Shown piece by piece: positions 1-34,313 of a stretch of 47,496 nucleotides of DNA (its first letter is position 1; the number at the start of each line of letters is the position of its first letter). The stretch is from assembly GCA_003104935.1 (NCBI GenBank), contig PQAE01000005.1, positions 68,034 through 115,529 on the forward strand, read 5' to 3'. Made by a program: the position numbers and the translations under genes. The DNA is from Parcubacteria group bacterium (GTDB lineage: Bacteria; Patescibacteriota; Patescibacteriia; UBA1558; GWA2-36-10). The notes below the pieces were generated by a model that worked only from the letters and a program-made list of their open reading frames with translations, was not told the DNA's origin and did not search any database.

Positions 1-783
1 CGGGATTTCGGACAGGATTTACACCGCATCTTAACTCATCGTCAGTATAAGCTTTTTGGCGTGGTCAACGGCATTGACGCCAAGGCTTTTAACCCGGTTA
101 ATGACCACAGTATTTACAAAAATTACGACTATAAGAGTATTGATCAGAAAAAAACCAACAAAACTCAAGTGCAAAAGCTATTTAAATTACCGGTGGCTGA
201 AGAAGTGCCGTTGATATGCACTACCTCGCGGGTCACCTATCAAAAGGGATTTGAATTGATTTTGAGAATAATCGAGCCGCTTATGGATCTGGAGTTGCAG
301 TTATTGGTAGTCGGCGCGGGCGATAAGGCCTATATCAAAGAATTAAGTAAAGTGGCTAAAAAGTTTCCTAATAAATTGGTGGTCGTGCCCTCGCACGAAA
401 AGATTATCCAGCATGAAAACCAGATTTACGCCGGTGCAGACATGATTCTAATGCCGTCACACTATGAACCCTGCGGCATCAATCAGTTAAAGAGCTTTCG
501 CTATGGCTGTGTGCCGGTAGTACGTAGCATCGGAGGGCTGAGCGACACCGTGGTTGATTATGAGCCGGGCAATAAAAACAGCAACGGCTTTACTTTTCTT
601 AAATACAGTTCCCAGGCCCTACTAGTAGCTCTGAGCCGTGCCCTGGAGACTTATCGTCATAAAAATCTGTGGCGTTCTCTGGTAGCACAGGTGATGAAAT
701 CATCGGTATCATGGGAGCTGCCGGCGCGTAAATATATTCAACTCTATAATAAGGCCAAAGAATTTAAGAATGAGAAGAAATAA
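1..783 (+). CDS. glgA: Glycogen/starch synthase, C-terminal part (5' end lies outside the window)
   Basis: Frame 1 is open from base 1 (RDFGQDL...FGVVNGID). GT-B C-terminal motifs HYEPCGINQL and GGLSDTV are present. It is a paralogue of the complete GlgA at 5183-6664. Confidence 0.85.
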   Translation, partial: RDFGQDLHRILTHRQYKLFGVVNGIDAKAFNPVNDHSIYKNYDYKSIDQKKTNKTQVQKLFKLPVAEEVPLICTTSRVTYQKGFELILRIIEPLMDLELQLLVVGAGDKAYIKELSKVAKKFPNKLVVVPSHEKIIQHENQIYAGADMILMPSHYEPCGINQLKSFRYGCVPVVRSIGGLSDTVVDYEPGNKNSNGFTFLKYSSQALLVALSRALETYRHKNLWRSLVAQVMKSSVSWELPARKYIQLYNKAKEFKNEKK

Positions 784-1936
784 TAAAGTAACTTGGGTTA
801 ATTTTTTACATCTCTACCAACCGCCCTGGCAAGAGCCGGGTATTTTAGAAAAGGTAGCCATAGAAAGTTATGACTATCTTCTGACTCTTTTAGAAAAATA
901 CCCAAAGTATAGGGCCAGTATAAATATTAGCGGTAGTCTGTTGGAGCAGTTGGCAACGGTAAAGCCCGGGATCTTAGCCCGGCTACAGCGTCTGGTTAGG
1001 GTGCGGCGGATAGAACTGGTCGGTACCGCCTATTATCATCCAATCTTGCCTCTGGTTAGTCCTCAGGATGCTATCCGACAAATAAAACTCAACCAGCAAG
1101 CGCTGGAGAAATTTTTTCCGGACAGCATGGTCAGCGGTTTTTATCTGCCGGAGATGGCATATAGCTTGCCAGTGGCTAAACTGGTAAAAAAGCTAGGATA
1201 TCAATGGCTGATATTAGACCCGATTCACTATGTCGGCCAGATTGATAAAAATATTCAATATTTGCTGAAAAATACCGGATTAAAAATAATATTCCGTGAC
1301 CGAGCTATATCCAAGTCCTACCCACCGCGGATTATTTTTGATTTTTTAGAAAAAAATAAAAAGCAGACATTTATCTCAGCTACCGACGCCGAAATCTACG
1401 GACATTGGCACGAAGACAAACAGGGTTTTATTGAAAAACTGATGTTTGTCGAACGTTTAGAAATTTTAACGGTCAGCCAGTATCTGAATAAGCTAAAAAA
1501 AACTGAGGTTATTAATTTACGCCCCGCTTCCTGGGAAAGCACTTTGTCAGAAATAAAAGGAAAAAATTTTTATAGTCTCTGGGCTAATCCTAAAAATAAA
1601 ATTCACCGGCTGTTATGGGATTTATTGCACCTGGCCAGCCGGCTGGTAGCCAAATATTCCCAAGACGCCAACATTTTTTGGGCCCGGCAACACCTGGAAC
1701 GCGGATTATCTTCTTGCACTTTCTGGTGGGCGAGCGCACGTCGCCCCTCTCCTTTTTCCTCTCTGACCTGGAATCCGGACATGATCGATAAGGGGGCTAA
1801 GGAGTTGGTTTTGAGTGTGCGGTCATTAGCTCGGGCAAAATCCCCAGAAAAGGTGCGGGCCGAGGAGCTCTATCTGGCGATTCAAAAGGAAACCTGGTTC
1901 AAGCATTGGTATAAATTTAATAAATTTTTTGATTAG
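770..1936 (+). CDS. Glycoside hydrolase family 57-like enzyme (alpha-glucan acting)
   Basis: N-terminal NFLHLYQPP resembles the GH57 HQP region, and DAEIYGHWHED resembles the GH57 GHW region. The start overlaps the upstream glgA stop by 14 nt. Confidence 0.7.
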   Translation: MRRNNKVTWVNFLHLYQPPWQEPGILEKVAIESYDYLLTLLEKYPKYRASINISGSLLEQLATVKPGILARLQRLVRVRRIELVGTAYYHPILPLVSPQDAIRQIKLNQQALEKFFPDSMVSGFYLPEMAYSLPVAKLVKKLGYQWLILDPIHYVGQIDKNIQYLLKNTGLKIIFRDRAISKSYPPRIIFDFLEKNKKQTFISATDAEIYGHWHEDKQGFIEKLMFVERLEILTVSQYLNKLKKTEVINLRPASWESTLSEIKGKNFYSLWANPKNKIHRLLWDLLHLASRLVAKYSQDANIFWARQHLERGLSSCTFWWASARRPSPFSSLTWNPDMIDKGAKELVLSVRSLARAKSPEKVRAEELYLAIQKETWFKHWYKFNKFFD

Positions 1937-16900: not shown

Positions 16901-17241
16901 GGTTCTATAGAATCAACCCTGGCGTTAGTCAGTCCGGCGGTCCTTAATTTGCCGTCTATATAGCCGCTTATTCCCTGAGTGCTGTTTAATCCAGAGTTTT
17001 TTGCCAACATGATGTTTATCACATTAGGAACAAAGTCTTGTCCTGGTATCAGGGACTCTAGACTTGGTCCTAGCAGGGGTATGTGTTGCCCACCAGTTAT
17101 AGGTTCTCGTCTTTTAAATCCGGCTTCACTAGCCGGCCCAAAGTAGTAAAGAATGCTTAAAATGGCAGTGAAAACCGCAAAAATGGTTAGAAAAAAACCG
17201 CTTATTAAGTAGCGATTACGCAAAAGTTTAGCAGGGAGCAT
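13936..17241 (-). CDS. Membrane-anchored subtilase (peptidase S8)-like protein with about 8 FG-GAP/VCBS repeats and a Cys/Gly-rich C-terminus
   Basis: N-terminal TM helix. S8 His (DHGTVVVG) and Ser (GGTSVSAPMVAG) motifs are present, but the Asp-motif position reads IAFIETAG. It has repeated xDxDxDGxxEIV motifs and a C-terminal 60 aa containing 13 Cys. Confidence 0.8.
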   Translation of the reverse strand: MLPAKLLRNRYLISGFFLTIFAVFTAILSILYYFGPASEAGFKRREPITGGQHIPLLGPSLESLIPGQDFVPNVINIMLAKNSGLNSTQGISGYIDGKLRTAGLTNARVDSIEPLFDVGTKNPNYSLKKSLGMDRAYIINFSSDVDTRQITRALSDDNKITSAELSLIGKPTTVPNDTIYNDQVNYPNQWQHDVNHYNSEAAWDISTGTPSTVIAFIETAGFNNWTHPDLIDNIWQNLGEDADQDGHVIEQVEGAWQYDPGDINNVDDDADGKIDDFIGWNFINNNNTVTGGDHGTVVVGSALATTNNNLGVASLCWNCRAMLLRNPNEYQAIQYAVDRGADVISVSQEHSFSLFNSLAVSYAEAANVPVVAGSLNENADVRSYPAQFPQVIAVTGSNQNDTRIIGTPPSASSPYGAWADVASSFNIWTTIGADGYQYSGGTSVSAPMVAGLIGLMKSIKPDLTNDQVRSIIRTAVDPVSGNEYFGTGRIDAYQALNYVKNAVDNNLAIPIAKLDPWFDNKSMNPKTIITITGTATSTDPDTDFDYFNLEYGIGAYPSSWNLFYSSSTPVKDGFLGTLYGNSLPSGTSLISLRLTVGSIDPGTQQTLTTVDKTVIPINERSIFRTDSPVYGALTTADLDNDDDQEIIAGTTSGKMYVFNHNGALHNSSWPKNVGNSITATPAIGDLDEDGDLEIVAGAANSNLYVWDQSGNILSGWENKSVSGQIAGLSPILADINNDHHLEVVVTTNDGHIYVWNRTGTLLWSYSLNTTPMGAPAVGDTDGDGRLEIVIGVPVAGSPVTGAIKILNDNGSLAATISLPAYIGSSVALADFNNDDLEEIVVGTNNYDNKLYVLKQDGSNFNSNWPKSLGSNNSVVDAPAIGDIDGDGNLDITINSNDNKIWAWSGDGTSLSGSWPAIISGMAKSMPIIADIDDDGDAEILVNAINSALEITSKVVAIESNGSIKTGDWPKYTEYQISDYPPLVTDLDDDGKLEIITGDGSVAGSGGGDSVYVWWTGVDIGTGDWPQRYHDMRNTHQTGTHCGITNDRQCQGLPNQIFLYCRNGSSVPKCSVCGCPSGGTCLGSGYCSGSGGGDCRPSCEFE

Positions 17242-17268
17242 ATTCTTTTCTTTAATTATTATATGGGT

Positions 17269-17297
17269 ATTATAACAAGAAAAAAAATTTTTGCCAA
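17269..17297 (-). promoter_or_regulatory. Promoter TTGGCA-17-TATAAT
   Basis: On the minus strand: -35 at 17292-17297 and -10 at 17269-17274, 28 nt upstream of the protease ATG. Confidence 0.45.
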
Positions 17298-17339
17298 AAG
17301 GAGATAAAAGGTGAATTCTCCTTCATTTAACCAAGAACT

Positions 17340-17625
17340 AATAACCTACAAACTTCGGGGGTAGGGTAGGTATTTTTAGTATAGCCCTATTTGACCCCAT
17401 AAGCGACAGGCCTCAATGCTTGCCTGCCCGCTACGGCCAAGTCCGTAAGGCTTTAACAGGTGGGGTATGGGGGGTACCTTATTGCACCGTAGGAGCATAT
17501 GTAAAGAAGTGAATAAAATAATAAATGGTGCTGTCGCTACGGGGCGAGACGTGGTTCTATTTGCCATTTAGATGAAAAACAAGCCCTAGTGCCTGGCACT
17601 AGGGTACTCTTATTTTCTTGACAAA
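17340..17625. ncRNA. Structured non-coding region of unassigned family and strand
   Basis: No credible ORF. Long-range complementarity: agcgacag 17402-17409 with ctgtcgct 17531-17538, and ctacgg 17431-17436 with ccgtag 17487-17492. There are several local hairpins. The region ends in the hairpin ccctagtgcc/ggcactaggg, which has U-rich tails on both strands. Confidence 0.3.
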
Positions 17626-17627
17626 AT

Positions 17628-17655
17628 ACAGATCAATTCTATAATATAGCCAGCT
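17628..17655 (+). promoter_or_regulatory. Promoter TTGACA-16-TATAAT
   Basis: Both hexamers are consensus. No + strand CDS follows. Confidence 0.5.
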
Positions 17656-17661
17656 TGGTCT

Positions 17662-17788
17662 CTGCGTCCGAAATACGGCCTGAGGTCAAGACTATGCCAT
17701 TGCGATGGCATCACCCGCCCTACGGCGGGGCGCGCGACAGCAGGGGCTAGTGCTCGGTACTAGCCCCTGTTTTCTTTTAGTTGAAATA
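17662..17788 (+). ncRNA. Candidate small RNA (~125 nt), family unknown
   Basis: Bounded by the consensus promoter and an 11-bp terminator (caggggctagt/actagcccctg plus ttttctttt). Internal hairpins are atgccat-tgcg-atggcat and cccgcc-ctac-ggcggg. Confidence 0.45.
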
Positions 17789-17795
17789 TACAAAT

Positions 17796-21568: not shown

Positions 21569-21668
21569 TGGAGCGGGATACGGCCCTGCACCTCGCTTCG
21601 CGAGTGCAGGATCTTCGTTCGTCACTGCCTTCTGGGCAGTGACTCACTGCGAGAATTAACTCCACGGG
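21569..21668 (-). pseudogene. tRNA-Gly-derived degenerate copy with inserted hairpins, ending in ...cccgctcca
   Basis: The minus strand reads gtggagttaattc (compare gtgtagttcagtt) ... gaagatc ... ggccgtatcccgctcca (compare tccggtcacccgctcca). It is interrupted by a 9-bp hairpin (21621-21643) and an 11-bp hairpin (21585-21610). Confidence 0.45.
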
Positions 21669-21933: not shown

Positions 21934-22016
21934 TGGAGCGGGTGATCCCGCTTCGGGCGGGACGACCTTTTCCCTTGATGCGGTCGCCGTTAAATAATTA
22001 ACTTTGGCGGCCAATG
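21934..22016 (-). pseudogene. tRNA-Gly 3'-half-like fragment ending in cacccgctcca
   Basis: The minus strand reads tcaagggaaaaggtcg (compare ccaaggaaaaggtcg), then tcccgc-ccgaa-gcggga replacing the T arm, then tcacccgctcca (12/12 match). Confidence 0.5.
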
Positions 22017-22107: not shown

Positions 22108-22111
22108 CTAC

Positions 22112-22148
22112 CCCCGGATCAAGTCCGGGGTTTGGCGGGCAGGCCCGC
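22112..22148. repeat. Two GC-rich hairpins abutting the tRNA-Gly(GCC) 5' end
   Basis: ccccgga-tcaag-tccgggg (22112-22130; near-copy at 33923-33940) and gcgggc-ag-gcccgc (22135-22148). Confidence 0.6.
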
Positions 22149-23556: not shown

Positions 23557-23630
<74 letters not shown>

Positions 23631-23679: not shown

Positions 23680-23728
23680 ACCACTTTCCGCCAAAGGCGG
23701 ACCCGCCTCTGGCGGGGGCTACGTGGCC
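23680..23728 (-). pseudogene. tRNA-Cys 5' fragment with two hairpins inserted in the D loop
   Basis: The minus strand reads ggccacgtagcc (12/12), then cccgcc-aga-ggcggg, then tccgcc-ttt-ggcgga, then aagtggt (7/7). Confidence 0.6.
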
Positions 23729-23774: not shown

Positions 23775-23933
23775 GGAATCTCTGCCCAAAACATATGGGC
23801 CTTGGGCCCAGAACCGTCGCTGCACCCGCCAAAGCTTTAGCGTCTGGGTTAAAGGTTTTGCCCGCCTGCCATCGCCTTCGGCGAGACCGTGGCGGGCAGG
23901 CAGACCTCTGCCTTACCACTTGGCGACCAGGCC
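23775..23933 (-). pseudogene. tRNA-Cys-derived copy with insertions in the anticodon loop, variable region and T loop
   Basis: The minus strand reads ggcctggtc, then gccaagtggtaaggcagaggtctgc (25/25), a ~40-nt GC hairpin, aaaacctttaac (12/12), a 31-nt insert, cggttc, tgggcc-caa-ggccca plus 15 nt, and gattcc. No matching 3' acceptor strand is present. Confidence 0.6.
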
Positions 23934-24002: not shown

Positions 24003-24842
24003 TCAGGCAAGCCTGATTTTTTTTAGTTCATTCAGGCACTTCTGATGCATTTTAGGATTAGCGGCTAAAATAGTCTTAACTTTTATTTGCCAGGGTTTAT
24101 TTTGCCAGTCAGTGACTAGTCCGCCGGCTTCTCTGACGAGCATTACGCCGGGCACCAGATCCCAAAGATGAGCGCCCGTTACCAGGTGGGCCTGGGTATG
24201 GCCGGCGGCCAACATAGCTAGTTCTATACTAGTAGAACCGAAGTGGCGGGTATGATGATTGATATTGTGGAAGTGCGTGTATAGACTAAAGGCCTTTTTA
24301 GTATTGGCCGGTCCAGAGCCATGGCAATAAGTAATAATTGATTTTTTCATTTCCACTGCAGGCGAGACCCGCAACCGGCGGTTATTTCTGTAGGCTCCCT
24401 GCCCACGGATAGCCCAATACATCTCCTCCAGTAGCGGAATATAGATAACGCTAAGCACCGGCCGACGTTTATATAGCAGAGCCAGAGCTACACAAAATAC
24501 CGGATCGTGGATAGTGAAGTTGGTCGTGCCGTCCAAGGGGTCAATAATCCATTCATAATCAACGCTGGTGTTATTAGTTAGGCCGCTTTCTTCGGATAAA
24601 ACATCATAATCCGGAAAGTTTTTTTTGAGATGTCTCAGGATAATCGTCTCGGATTTTTTATCTGTTGCCGTGACCCGCTCGTCGTGTTTTTTAAATGTAA
24701 TTTTTTGGTCCCGGTGACTGAAAAATTCTTTTTTGATCATCGCTCCAGCTTCGCGGGCGGCACTCTGACATACTTTTAATTCTCGGCTATACATAGGTGG
24801 TGTTTTATTAAACTTCAGCTTCATTATAACATGGATTAGCAA
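24003..24842 (-). CDS. Inositol monophosphatase family protein (SuhB-like)
   Basis: WIIDPLDGTTNF motif. The true start may be an internal Met (24824 or 24794). Confidence 0.85.
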   Translation of the reverse strand: MLIHVIMKLKFNKTPPMYSRELKVCQSAAREAGAMIKKEFFSHRDQKITFKKHDERVTATDKKSETIILRHLKKNFPDYDVLSEESGLTNNTSVDYEWIIDPLDGTTNFTIHDPVFCVALALLYKRRPVLSVIYIPLLEEMYWAIRGQGAYRNNRRLRVSPAVEMKKSIITYCHGSGPANTKKAFSLYTHFHNINHHTRHFGSTSIELAMLAAGHTQAHLVTGAHLWDLVPGVMLVREAGGLVTDWQNKPWQIKVKTILAANPKMHQKCLNELKKIRLA

Positions 24843-29530: not shown

Positions 29531-29581
29531 AAATTTCGTAATTTAATGAATTTTTGTTTATTTATCCGCTCAACGGGCTGT

Positions 29582-29614
29582 TCCGCCACTGGCGGACAGA
29601 CGCCCCCTCGGGCG
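29582..29614. repeat. Two GC-rich hairpins in the nusA leader
   Basis: tccgcc-act-ggcgga (29582-29596) and cgccc-cctc-gggcg (29601-29614). They belong to the same family as the hairpins at the tRNA loci. Confidence 0.6.
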
Positions 29615-33893: not shown

Positions 33894-33945
33894 AAGCTAC
33901 GTTATTAATTTTATAGCTCCATCCCCGGATTAAGTCCGGGACAAG

Positions 33946-34042
33946 CTACGTGGTTAGTCCGCCAGAGGCGGACAGGGACACCAGGTTTTTCCCGCCAATG
34001 GCGGGACCCCGCCCTGGCTATGGCCAGAGGCGGTGGCATCCC
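33946..34042 (+). pseudogene. tRNA-Glu 5'-half-like fragment split by three GC hairpins
   Basis: ctacgtggttag (D-loop-like), then tccgcc-aga-ggcgga, then gacaccaggtttt (13/13), then cccgcc-aat-ggcggg and ccgcc.ctggc-tatg-gccag.ggcgg, then catcc. Confidence 0.55.
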
Positions 34043-34113
34043 TAATGATAAGAAACTTAAAAACATTTTGATAAATATAATAAGAGGTTAGTTCTTCTTG
34101 GTGACCCGACAAC

Positions 34114-34188
34114 GGCCCCATCGTCTAATGGTTAGGACACCAGGTTTTCATCCTGGCAATTCGGGTTCGATTCCCGGTGGGGTCACCA
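34114..34188 (+). tRNA. tRNA-Glu (anticodon UUC), CCA encoded
   Basis: Acceptor ggcccca/tggggtc, anticodon arm ccagg-ttTTCat-cctgg, and T arm tcggg-ttcgatt-cccgg. Confidence 0.95.
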
Positions 34189-34206
34189 AGAAGAACTTAG
34201 CTCTAA

Positions 34207-34313
34207 CAATTCGGGTTCTGGGCCAAAGGCCCATCCGCCTCTGGTGGAGATTCCCGGCTTTGCCCCGCGGAGTTCCGAGCGAAGTCGAGGGACGAAGTGG
34301 GGTGGGGTCACCA
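34207..34313 (+). pseudogene. tRNA-Glu 3'-half-like fragment split by hairpins
   Basis: caattcgggttc (12/12), then tgggcc-aaa-ggccca and tccgcc-tct-ggtgga, then gattcccgg (9/9), then a 45-nt insert, then tggggtcacca (11/11). Confidence 0.65.

Follow-up and report, generated by a model that had tools for sequence, protein, structure and literature searches.

Why does the same hairpin of 15 nucleotides (nt) interrupt broken copies of two different transfer RNA (tRNA) genes at the same T-loop position? The question is raised by a stretch of 47,496 nt from a Parcubacteria group bacterium (contig PQAE01000005.1, positions 68,034 to 115,529; the whole stretch is called the window hereafter), in which partial copies of tRNA-Glu and tRNA-Cys lie beside the intact genes. 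We found that the hairpin is one half of a 30-nt double-hairpin module (HPHP), and that HPHP goes together with tRNA fragments and, where the unit is complete, with a minimal GIY-YIG nuclease gene. The hairpin is most likely the gene-less scar of a selfish, apparently undescribed element invading tRNA-gene loops. Probably, these double hairpins mark the junctions of small selfish cassettes invading bacterial tRNA genes, and the copies in the window are relics of such cassettes.

Interrupted tRNA copies in the window

Five canonical tRNA genes are present in the 47-kb window (Gly-CCC, Leu-UAA, Gly-GCC, Cys-GCA and Glu-UUC), which is a real chromosomal segment of a bacterium of the Patescibacteria (candidate phyla radiation, CPR); its NusA displays 70-87% identity to proteins annotated as Patescibacteria, Parcubacteria and Komeilibacteria. 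Chance or an artefact was rejected as the source of the copies, since the region is also present on an independent Logan contig (SRR5381729) and the junction motif occurs in dozens of other genomes. At the Glu locus the functional gene is the intact tRNA-Glu at 34114..34188, which is flanked by pseudo-fragments; the features, all on the forward strand, are the following.

33916..34041, forward: 5'-type pseudo-fragment of tRNA-Glu (nt 1 to ~40), upstream of the intact gene (DNA fold z = -6.55)
34090-34107 and 34180-34197 (within 34090..34197), forward: perfect 18-bp inverted repeat bracketing the intact tRNA-Glu, read from the sequence
34114..34188, forward: intact tRNA-Glu(UUC) with encoded CCA (ARAGORN; Rfam tRNA, 61.7 bits)
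34207..34313, forward: 3'-type pseudo-fragment of tRNA-Glu (nt 44-76), from reading and short-word BLAST with tRNA-Glu
34207-34218, forward: CAATTCGGGTTC, tRNA-Glu nt 44-56
34219..34233, forward: first hairpin (HP1) TGGGCCAAAGGCCCA, TGGGCC-aaa-GGCCCA, inserted after T-loop C56 and predicted as a hairpin by DNA folding
34234..34248, forward: second hairpin (HP2) TCCGCCTCTGGTGGA, TCCGCC-tct-GGTGGA, with one G:T pair (DNA fold; aligns with 30 other modules)
34249-34257, forward: GATTCCCGG, tRNA-Glu nt 57-65
34258..34300, forward: secondary 43-nt GC-rich insert (CCGAGCGAAGTCGAGGGA) at the T-stem/acceptor boundary of the 3' fragment
34301-34313, forward: GGTGGGGTCACCA, last piece of the 3' fragment

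The 3' fragment starts 18 nt past the intact gene and carries the double hairpin at 56/57 and the 43-nt insert at 65/66, its three tRNA pieces being the matches obtained in the short-word BLAST (34207-34218, 34249-34257 and 34301-34313). HP2 forms the second half of the 30-nt module and is directly followed by GATTCC (nt 57-62). The 5' fragment is interrupted at three points: by a hairpin at 7/8 (33924-33940), by another at the D-loop/stem boundary (33957-33973), and by a 47-nt double-hairpin insert (33990-34036) at position 35/36 of the anticodon loop. This last insert splits the anticodon after its second base (GGACACCAGGTTTT, then the 47 nt, then CATCC). The two pseudo-halves thus lie on opposite sides of the intact tRNA-Glu, the 5' half upstream and the 3' part downstream.

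In the case of tRNA-Cys both relics lie on the same side of the gene, on the reverse strand.

23557..23630, reverse: intact tRNA-Cys(GCA)
23680..23728, reverse: Cys pseudo-copy B (DNA fold z = -3.35)
23775..23933, reverse: Cys pseudo-copy A (nt 1-62), the outermost relic (reading, BLAST and DNA fold)

Copy A is located upstream of the intact gene, does not contain nt 63-76 (the 3' acceptor strand), and carries a 39-nt hairpin at 35/36 (~23861-23899) together with a 31-nt insert in the variable region (23817-23847). Its anticodon reads TCTGC, the 39 nt, and AAAACC, so that it is split after base 2 as in the Glu copy, with an ambiguity of 1-2 nt. Read along the minus strand, its T-loop consists of CGGTTC (23816-23811), HP1 TGGGCCCAAGGCCCA (23810-23796), a decayed HP2 TATGTTTTGGGCAGA (23795-23781) and a 6-nt overshoot GATTCC (23780-23775); this HP2 agrees with the consensus at 10/15 positions, four of the five differences being C>T or G>A. 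Copy B is composed of GGCCACGTAGCC (nt 1-12), a perfect double hairpin in the D-loop (CCCGCCagaGGCGGG + TCCGCCtttGGCGGA, 23687-23716) and AAGTGGT. The outer copy being decayed and the inner one perfect, copy A fits the oldest relic in a succession of insertions that each hit the intact gene. There were at least two invasions of tRNA-Cys, and tRNA-Glu was reached from both of its sides.

The original prediction, made from the letters of the window, had placed TGGGCCnAAGGCCCA between T-loop nt 56 and 57 of both copies, and alignment to the intact genes bears this out for Glu (34219-34233, forward) and Cys (23796-23810, reverse); the two hairpins are identical at 14/15 positions and the sequence reads as it had been given. 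It was also right about the anticodon-loop inserts, which fall at 35/36 in both copies and have CCCGCC/GGCGGG arms, the Cys boundary being ambiguous by 1-2 nt. Overlooked at that stage were the Glu halves flanking the intact gene, the hairpin nature of the second 15-mer, copy B of tRNA-Cys, and the hairpin-bearing relics at the two tRNA-Gly genes.

The 30-nt double-hairpin module

HPHP is a dyad-symmetric double hairpin of 15 + 15 nt with the half consensus YSNGCC-NNN-GGCNSR. As modules we took all adjacent 6-3-6 hairpin pairs with GCC/GGC cores in the fetched loci, 31 of them distinct. The cores are invariant in all 31, and the three outer stem pairs vary yet stay complementary: 99.2% of the cells are paired and 44 are changed on both sides, a result reached in 0/500 shuffles and approached by no slid register, although these pairing statistics are inflated and partly circular, as some modules were picked by the hairpin finder. 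The HP2 of the T-loop set, which was not selected for, still covaries (TCCGCC, CCCGCC, TCAGCC, CCAGCC and TCGGCC, each with its complement). In the loops, A is constant at position 9 and T fills position 22 in 29/31 modules; the two positions are mirror images about the module centre. This A9/T22 symmetry has no obvious rationale for a single-stranded RNA; the two-fold symmetry of the module points to a putative DNA-level site for a dimer or a cruciform.

The module sits in a tRNA fragment beside an intact tRNA, at one of three places: the D-loop (12/13 to 14/15), the anticodon loop (35/36) or the T-loop (56/57). One fragment, at locus L015, carries it at both 35/36 and 56/57, the positions at which copy A of the window tRNA-Cys likewise has its inserts. 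The anticodon-loop position, which had been put forward as a feature common to both copies in the window, is used independently at L041, L047 and L015.

Some modules were observed outside this setting. Solitary HPHPs are found at L026 1905-1934 and L002 5083-5112, in AT-rich spacers unrelated to or far from tRNA fragments, and they are flanked by short direct repeats (AGACAC and CTTAAT) resembling target-site duplications. Separately, L021 (1126-1155) and L022/L032 are identical around this site except for a 35-nt hairpin nested in the HP2 5' arm of L022/L032 and missing from L021, which looks like a recent insertion, polymorphic between strains or samples.

Recurrence of the T-loop junction in other genomes

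Searches for the hairpin were anchored on a perfect HP1. The species-level scan, made with GGTTCTGGGCCNAAGGCCCA on one genome per species, returned 13 loci, one of which (L004) is a chance match inside a coding region. The other 12 share the same anatomy, in which GGTTC-HP1-HP2-GAnTCC leads into a duplicate of the T-stem and acceptor 3' strands of the neighbouring intact tRNA; 11 of them are directly downstream of that tRNA, and in the remaining one (L010) the distance is ~300 nt, with a nuclease gene in between. The tRNAs concerned are His, Ser, Asn, Arg (two isoacceptors), Ala, Tyr, Thr and Leu, and the hosts are Magasanikbacteria, Komeilibacteria, other Patescibacteria, Bacteroidota, and metagenome-assembled genomes labelled Gammaproteobacteria or 'bacterium'. 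A metagenome scan gave 19 further loci, ~15 with the same anatomy, and added Trp, Val, Gly and Glu, so that the junction stands beside an intact gene in at least 13 tRNA species in all. A phage origin was rejected: the scan of viral contigs gave one match, unrelated and in a simple repeat.

From the two window copies it had been argued that a sequence- or structure-specific insertion or recombination process was at work and not independent random indels; the occurrence of the 56/57 junction at at least 13 tRNA species of several phyla sustains this argument. The idea that would have undone it, namely a hairpin found nowhere else and a single duplication including flanking sequence, does not hold: the hairpin recurs elsewhere and the flanks are tRNA-specific. 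For the same reason a single duplication copied between the two window sites was discarded.

In Bacteroidota some of the loci are tandem arrays with a period of ~65 nt. At L012 (5700-5880, tRNA-Leu) three 65-nt units follow the intact gene. In the Bacteroidota array at L008 (4000-4170) the fourth tRNA-Leu 3' unit has ~150 nt of GAGCGAAGCGAGTCGAGGGA-type repeats in its T-loop, which resemble the 43-nt insert of the window at 34258-34300. Tandem tRNA 3'-end units are also seen at L018 (~400-900, minus strand), alternating there between GGTTC-HP1-HP2 and GGTTC-ttta-HP2.

The associated GIY-YIG nuclease gene

At L010 a complete open reading frame (ORF) for a 92-aa GIY-YIG protein (Pfam PF01541, E = 5.8e-15) lies between tRNA-Tyr and the HPHP-bearing 3' fragment. 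It is flanked by a 58-nt direct repeat, which starts at G57 and takes in the tRNA end and the terminator. The same arrangement, with direct repeats of 55-58 nt starting at G57, is seen at L010/L030/L040 and at L020, L030 being the same sequence as L010 and L040 the orthologous site in another sample. A second PF01541 match among the associated ORFs has E = 1.7e-19. L010 also has a second GIY-YIG ORF, between a tRNA-Thr 5' fragment and the intact tRNA-Thr; the GC-rich insert in the D-arm of this fragment is one long imperfect hairpin and not a 30-nt HPHP.

A search with the L010 protein yielded 226 homologues of 79-115 aa (E < 1e-8), all of whose named sources are CPR bacteria. The contigs of nine representative homologues were inspected, and all nine show a tRNA fragment, HPHP, the ORF and an intact tRNA, arranged as follows.

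L036, D-loop: GGAAGGGTCGCATA, the hairpins TGCGCCCAAGGCGCA and CCCGCCTCGGGCGGG, GAGGCCGA, then the ORF and the intact tRNA-Ser(GGA)
L035, L037 and L042, D-loop of Ser(GGA): layout equivalent to L036
L044 and L045, D-loop of Ser(GCU): layout of the L036 type
L041, anticodon loop (35/36, as in the window): tRNA-Ser(UGA) nt 1-35, HPHP and AAAACTG, then the ORF and the intact tRNA
L047, Ser(UGA): fragment A (HPHP in the D-loop), ORF1, fragment B (HPHP at 35/36), ORF2, the intact tRNA and ORF3

L047 thus contains two nested units, as does the Cys locus of the window, and the fragment after its ORF3 starts at G57. Taken together, at all ten independent gene-bearing sites sampled (13 nuclease genes) the ORF lies between an HPHP-interrupted fragment and the intact, co-oriented tRNA, and the fragment reaches only ~4-12 nt past HPHP on the ORF side. 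ORF3 of L047 and the second ORF of L035 are both downstream of the intact tRNA, and no double hairpin was found beside either.

The ends of the proteins themselves betray the context of tRNA and HPHP in 48 of the 120 homologues listed: tails such as GEVA (tRNA-Ser 5' end), RFWAQGP (GGTTC-HP1) and RPRRTRLGRGG (encoded by HPHP) were found. In L035 (2235-2249), L036 (2244-2258), L037 (2250-2264) and L042 (1756-1770) the stop codon of the ORF is the TAG of the D-loop (nt 13-15), giving the tail G-E-V-A; these nucleotides of the tRNA-Ser D-loop are also the point at which HPHP is inserted in the upstream fragment. We considered whether the read-through into HP1 (RFWAQGPPA) is a conserved feature of the protein and rejected it, given that the ORF of L020 stops just before GGTTC.

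The associated ORFs correspond to the Slx1-like/UPF0213 type, consisting of a GIY-YIG catalytic domain with no auxiliary domain. The closest solved structure, and sole match in the PDB, is 1zg2 (UPF0213 protein BH0048), and it is weak (E = 0.0017). The bacterial Slx1-like branch is a minimal standalone GIY-YIG domain, and the 2006 survey of the superfamily regarded the prokaryotic Slx1-like proteins as probable repair enzymes (PMC1564403). Nucleases found at different loops and tRNAs are 54-70% identical and do not cluster by target, thus specificity is unlikely to lie in the protein. By eye, neither the CNNNG motif of I-TevI type nor the TCNGA site of Hpy188I was matched at the junctions.

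No gene for the enzyme that had been proposed to mobilise the hairpins, a tyrosine or serine recombinase, a RAYT/IS200-like protein or another HUH enzyme, was found in the window or in the examined element-bearing loci; at L045 a gene for a serine recombinase is located ~1.2 kb away from that of the nuclease, outside the element. It is the GIY-YIG nuclease, instead of a recombinase or HUH enzyme, that is associated with the hairpins. Among the window ORFs of at least ~100 aa, which were scanned against Pfam, no recombinase, transposase or HUH protein was detected, and the only nucleases of the window are a UPF0102 gene (kept in relatives with and without relics) and PolA.

Filled and empty alleles

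The comparison of empty and filled sites, which had been suggested as a check, could be made, and both kinds exist in related genomes. At the tRNA-Tyr site L013 and L023 are without an ORF, while L020 has an extra ORF-carrying unit; the ORF-less spacer of L013 looks like an L020-type unit from which the ORF was deleted. In the case of tRNA-Glu, L048 (NusA 78% identical) has a clean gene between glmS and a cold-shock gene, with no fragments or hairpins. L049 (NusA also 78%) is filled like the window, with a 5' pseudo-half, two hairpins in the D region, an insert at 35/36, and a related 32-nt insert in the place of the 43-nt insert of the window (65/66); its 3' fragment starts exactly at G57 and has no HPHP. 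Position 56/57 is therefore a junction with or without hairpins, and the differences among L048, L049 and the window indicate relics old enough to have diverged between lineages.

The perfect inverted repeat around the window tRNA-Glu follows the same distribution: its leader arm AGTTCTTCTTGGTGACCC complements the last 9 nt of tRNA-Glu (including CCA) and 9 nt of trailer, an analogous repeat is present in L049 (CCCCCCAGCTGG and CCAGCTGGGGGG), and there is none at the empty locus L048. Its role may be that of a processing stem, or it may mark the two ends of a tRNA cassette that was inserted.

Proposed origin of the hairpin-marked fragments

A complete cassette would comprise an HPHP-interrupted tRNA fragment, a gene for an Slx1-like (UPF0213) GIY-YIG nuclease of 80-115 aa co-oriented with the tRNA, and an intact tRNA, by which tRNA function is kept. 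Two layouts are observed: a 5' type, with the order fragment-HPHP-ORF-tRNA, and a 3' type, in which the tRNA is followed by the ORF and then by the fragment with its HPHP. The Glu and Cys copies of the window are ORF-less relics or miniature derivatives and not an active element. At tRNA-Cys a T-loop relic of the 5' type lies outside a D-loop relic of the 5' type, and at tRNA-Glu an anticodon-loop relic of the 5' type is upstream and a T-loop relic of the 3' type downstream.

We infer that the nuclease would break a hairpin-forming site, either HPHP or a loop of the tRNA gene, and that repair would take the conserved tRNA sequence as a portable homology arm, thereby copying the cassette. One intact tRNA would remain, and the displaced fragment would have HPHP precisely where the break had occurred. 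Further rounds of the process, or unequal exchange, may stack the units into arrays, and the ORF would later be lost, as in the life cycle of homing endonucleases, with the hairpin-marked fragments persisting. Repair through tRNA homology would explain why an HP1 beginning with TGGGCC is found in the T-loops of more than 12 tRNA species that share only the GGTTC/GAnTCC flanks. We conjecture that HPHP is the substrate or handle of the nuclease, as it is the sole constant DNA feature; it is taken as the handle because the protein appears too small and too uniform to encode many specificities. More tentatively, the cassettes may represent an undescribed class of mobile element in which a structure-specific Slx1-like nuclease with an HPHP handle targets the D, anticodon and T loops via tRNA homology. 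With like reserve, such a class might spread among tRNA species and across phyla, continually fragmenting and regenerating CPR tRNA genes.

Several points weigh against the proposal, besides the circularity of the pairing statistics already mentioned. Neither a GIY-YIG gene nor a remnant of one was detected in the 47-kb window or in the ORF-less HPHP loci, by tblastn or with a 120-sequence profile run on six-frame translations; most HPHP loci have no ORF, and the HPHP arrays of Bacteroidota have none that could be detected. All ORF-bearing sites in the sample go back to one query and its homologues (at least 54% identical). The intact neighbour keeps an unmodified loop, hence a simple model in which the insertion protects from recleavage fails. 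Finally, solitary HPHPs occur and single hairpins come and go in L018, so that hairpins may move independently of the ORF.

This last behaviour is what would be expected if HPHP, or the single 15-nt hairpin, were a miniature element of the kind of repetitive extragenic palindromes (REP), miniature inverted-repeat transposable elements (MITE) or double hairpins, moved in trans and inserting into tRNA hairpin loops, where it would survive only in dispensable copies, with the GIY-YIG gene as a passenger. We regard this as unlikely, even though it would accommodate the solitary modules in spacers (some with 6-7-nt flanking direct repeats), the polymorphic hairpin nested inside HP2 (L021 vs L022), the tandem units of L018 in which HP1 is present or absent, the extra hairpins at non-canonical positions in the window (Glu 7/8, 21/22 and 65/66; Cys 45/46) and the predominance of HPHP loci without ORF. 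HPHP lies ~4-12 nt from the ORF-proximal end of the fragment, and the ORF is always inside the interval between fragment and tRNA, at 10/10 sites, a fixed geometry that is not expected from independent secondary insertions. Moreover, the window contains no HUH, RAYT or transposase gene, nor was one recorded at the element-bearing loci examined, and for an element of the REP kind the hairpins are without the typical GTAG head.

Could the hairpin copies instead be functional RNAs, either intron-bearing tRNAs (with introns at 35/36 and 56/57) or tRNA-like leader and trailer structures serving processing or stability? The original prediction had allowed for a common processed architecture, an idea the present data do not favour, and we find a functional RNA very improbable: the copies are incomplete and mutationally decayed, each adjoins an intact isoacceptor gene, and they are wholly absent from the close relative L048. 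The anticodon is split, copy A of tRNA-Cys is without the 3' acceptor strand, and the 5' acceptor strand of the Glu copy, GCTCCAT, cannot pair with GTGGGGT; no tRNA call or Rfam family covers the fragments. The inserts do lie in loops, where additional helices might be accommodated in a tRNA fold, the hairpins show high stability and covariation, the G:T pair of the window HP2 would be G:U in RNA, and the fragments are probably co-transcribed with the neighbouring tRNA. Set against these are the A9/T22 dyad symmetry and the placement of HPHP 5' of the ORF in one layout and 3' in the other. An intron-containing or split tRNA was rejected in particular, because removal of the inserts gives no complete tRNA and the Glu halves are mismatched and separated by the intact gene.

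Next to genomic islands, partial tRNAs are known to form tandem arrays, and tyrosine integrases, as Williams reportedly described in 2002 (Nucleic Acids Res), favour sublocations in the anticodon and T loops, their insertion duplicating the tRNA 3' part as direct repeats. The partial copies could accordingly be attachment-site (att) scars, of the attL/attR type, from integrase islands or prophages, with the hairpins as arm remnants. This is the least probable explanation, and neither it nor membership among integrase att sites fits the data. The repeats are 18-300 nt apart, and the space between them holds no more than a 90-aa nuclease gene and in no case an integrase; the hairpin pair interrupts the duplicated segment between GGTTC and GAnTCC, a stretch that an att core would span without a break. 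Fragments of the 5' type are found upstream of the tRNA, unlike the products of integrases that regenerate the 3' end, and the viral-contig scan gave a single, unrelated match.

Relation to known systems and significance

The proposed cassette resembles those of homing endonucleases in having an intact target, an endonuclease ORF and a displaced, non-functional part of the target, with function kept by partial duplication. Duplications of a similar kind, at the C-terminal end, occur in fungal mitochondrial genes. The mitochondrial atp6/ORF360 endonuclease of Allomyces macrogynus, studied by Paquin, Laforest and Lang in 1994, is said to be a free-standing cassette carrying a replacement piece of its target. 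The arrangement with the ORF between the functional target and its displaced fragment was found at all ten independent ORF-bearing sites in related genomes; the window has the fragments but no ORF. Homing cassettes also alternate between presence and absence in related genomes and eventually lose the ORF; such alternation was seen between L013/L023 and L020, and between L048 on one side and L049 and the window on the other. They differ from the present units, which reside on bacterial chromosomes (CPR, Bacteroidota), have a tRNA as target with the break in one of three loops, come in 5' and 3' layouts, encode a nuclease of 80-115 aa without a DNA-binding domain, and carry a 30-bp HPHP at the junction. 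The likeness is one of layout and of presence and absence at the same site, and the uniformity of the nucleases argues against a site specificity encoded by the protein.

As regards the hairpins, the closest parallel is with the mitochondrial double-hairpin elements (DHEs) of chytrid fungi and fission yeasts, described in the account given in PMC10085805 (after Paquin et al. 2000) as short, GC-rich and potentially mobile hairpin pairs. According to the same account, identical copies are present across species, in spacers and in structural RNA genes (PMC10085805). Both DHEs and HPHP are adjacent pairs of GC-rich hairpins, potentially mobile, in an AT-richer genome, and related GC clusters and repetitive hairpin-forming elements are similar; our set of 31 distinct 30-nt modules, 99.2% paired and with polymorphic insertions, conforms to such a unit. 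HPHP is, unlike DHEs, bacterial, of exactly 15 + 15 nt, built on dyad-symmetric GCC-N3-GGC cores, and tied to tRNA-loop positions and to a GIY-YIG gene. It can be said to work like a DHE, not to be a member of that group: it belongs to Patescibacteria chromosomes, and the likeness drawn here is one of architecture.

Two bacterial or phage systems share some of these features. SegB and the other Seg GIY-YIG homing endonucleases of phage T4 are encoded in the T4 tRNA gene cluster (PMC2330249; PMC13096335), and there, too, a GIY-YIG gene lies among tRNA genes and its cleavage drives the preferential inheritance or amplification of neighbouring DNA. Seg proteins are, however, larger, have DNA-binding domains, act between co-infecting phages and are accompanied by no hairpin-interrupted tRNA fragment; furthermore, they belong to the UvrC/I-TevI branch and not to the Slx1-like branch (PMC1564403). 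REPs and the bacterial interspersed mosaic elements (BIME), with their REP-associated tyrosine transposases (RAYT, of the IS200/IS605-like HUH type), are likewise short GC-rich palindromes, often paired, that spread and are acted on as folded DNA. HPHP differs from them in starting with Y-S-N-GCC and not with GTAG and in its ties to tRNA loops and a GIY-YIG gene; the window is without a HUH gene, and the examined loci have none on record.

Full-text literature searches returned no account of bacterial tRNA fragments that are interrupted by hairpins and associated with GIY-YIG genes. The proposal would give a function and a genomic lifestyle to the abundant standalone GIY-YIG genes (UPF0213, Slx1-like) of uncultured bacteria, and would explain the partial tRNA genes and GC-rich hairpins that clutter the tRNA loci of Patescibacteria, features that break assemblies. 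It would also show a route by which tRNA genes are repeatedly split at their loops, and so bears on the origin of fragmented and interrupted tRNA genes. If it is true that a minimal nuclease recognises a 30-bp double hairpin or cloverleaf-folded tRNA-gene DNA, this would be a compact structure-specific DNA-cutting system. For annotation, an HPHP beside a tRNA fragment offers a simple diagnostic mark.

Other hairpin sites of the window

GC-rich hairpins cluster at the tRNA genes, with 10 of the 15 lying within 300 nt of a tRNA, a zone that makes up 4.2% of the window (binomial P = 4e-11); the pattern was matched at its observed count in 0/100 shuffles. Apart from the intact tRNAs, no Rfam family was found across the window at the gathering threshold, nor, at E <= 1, around the Glu and Cys loci or the 17.2-17.8 kb spacer.

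Both tRNA-Gly genes carry hairpin-bearing relics on the minus strand (21569-21660, 21934-21973 and 22108-22145), which are without the 30-nt module. The best defined is the following.

21934..21973, reverse: 3' relic of tRNA-Gly(GCC), GGAAAAGGTCG, TCCCGCccgaaGCGGGA and TCACCCGCTCCA, in which the GC hairpin TCCCGCccgaaGCGGGA replaces the T-arm

The second Gly relic has two hairpins of 10-11 bp ahead of TCCCGCTCCA, and GCGGG[...CCCCGGActtgaTCCGGGG]GTAG directly adjoins the 5' end of tRNA-Gly(GCC). Upstream of nusA, at 29580-29612, two adjacent GC hairpins (GTCCGCCactGGCGGAC and CGCCCCCTCGGGCG) are present with no tRNA fragment near. The 550-nt spacer at 17240-17795, between a subtilase/FG-GAP gene and holA, contains several GC-rich stems (e.g. 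17714-17729 and 17738-17770) and may be an unannotated structured RNA or further debris of the element. Lastly, the Logan contig L001 ends at window position 24003, ~350 bp upstream of the tRNA-Cys relics, which suggests that the repeats of these relics break short-read assemblies.

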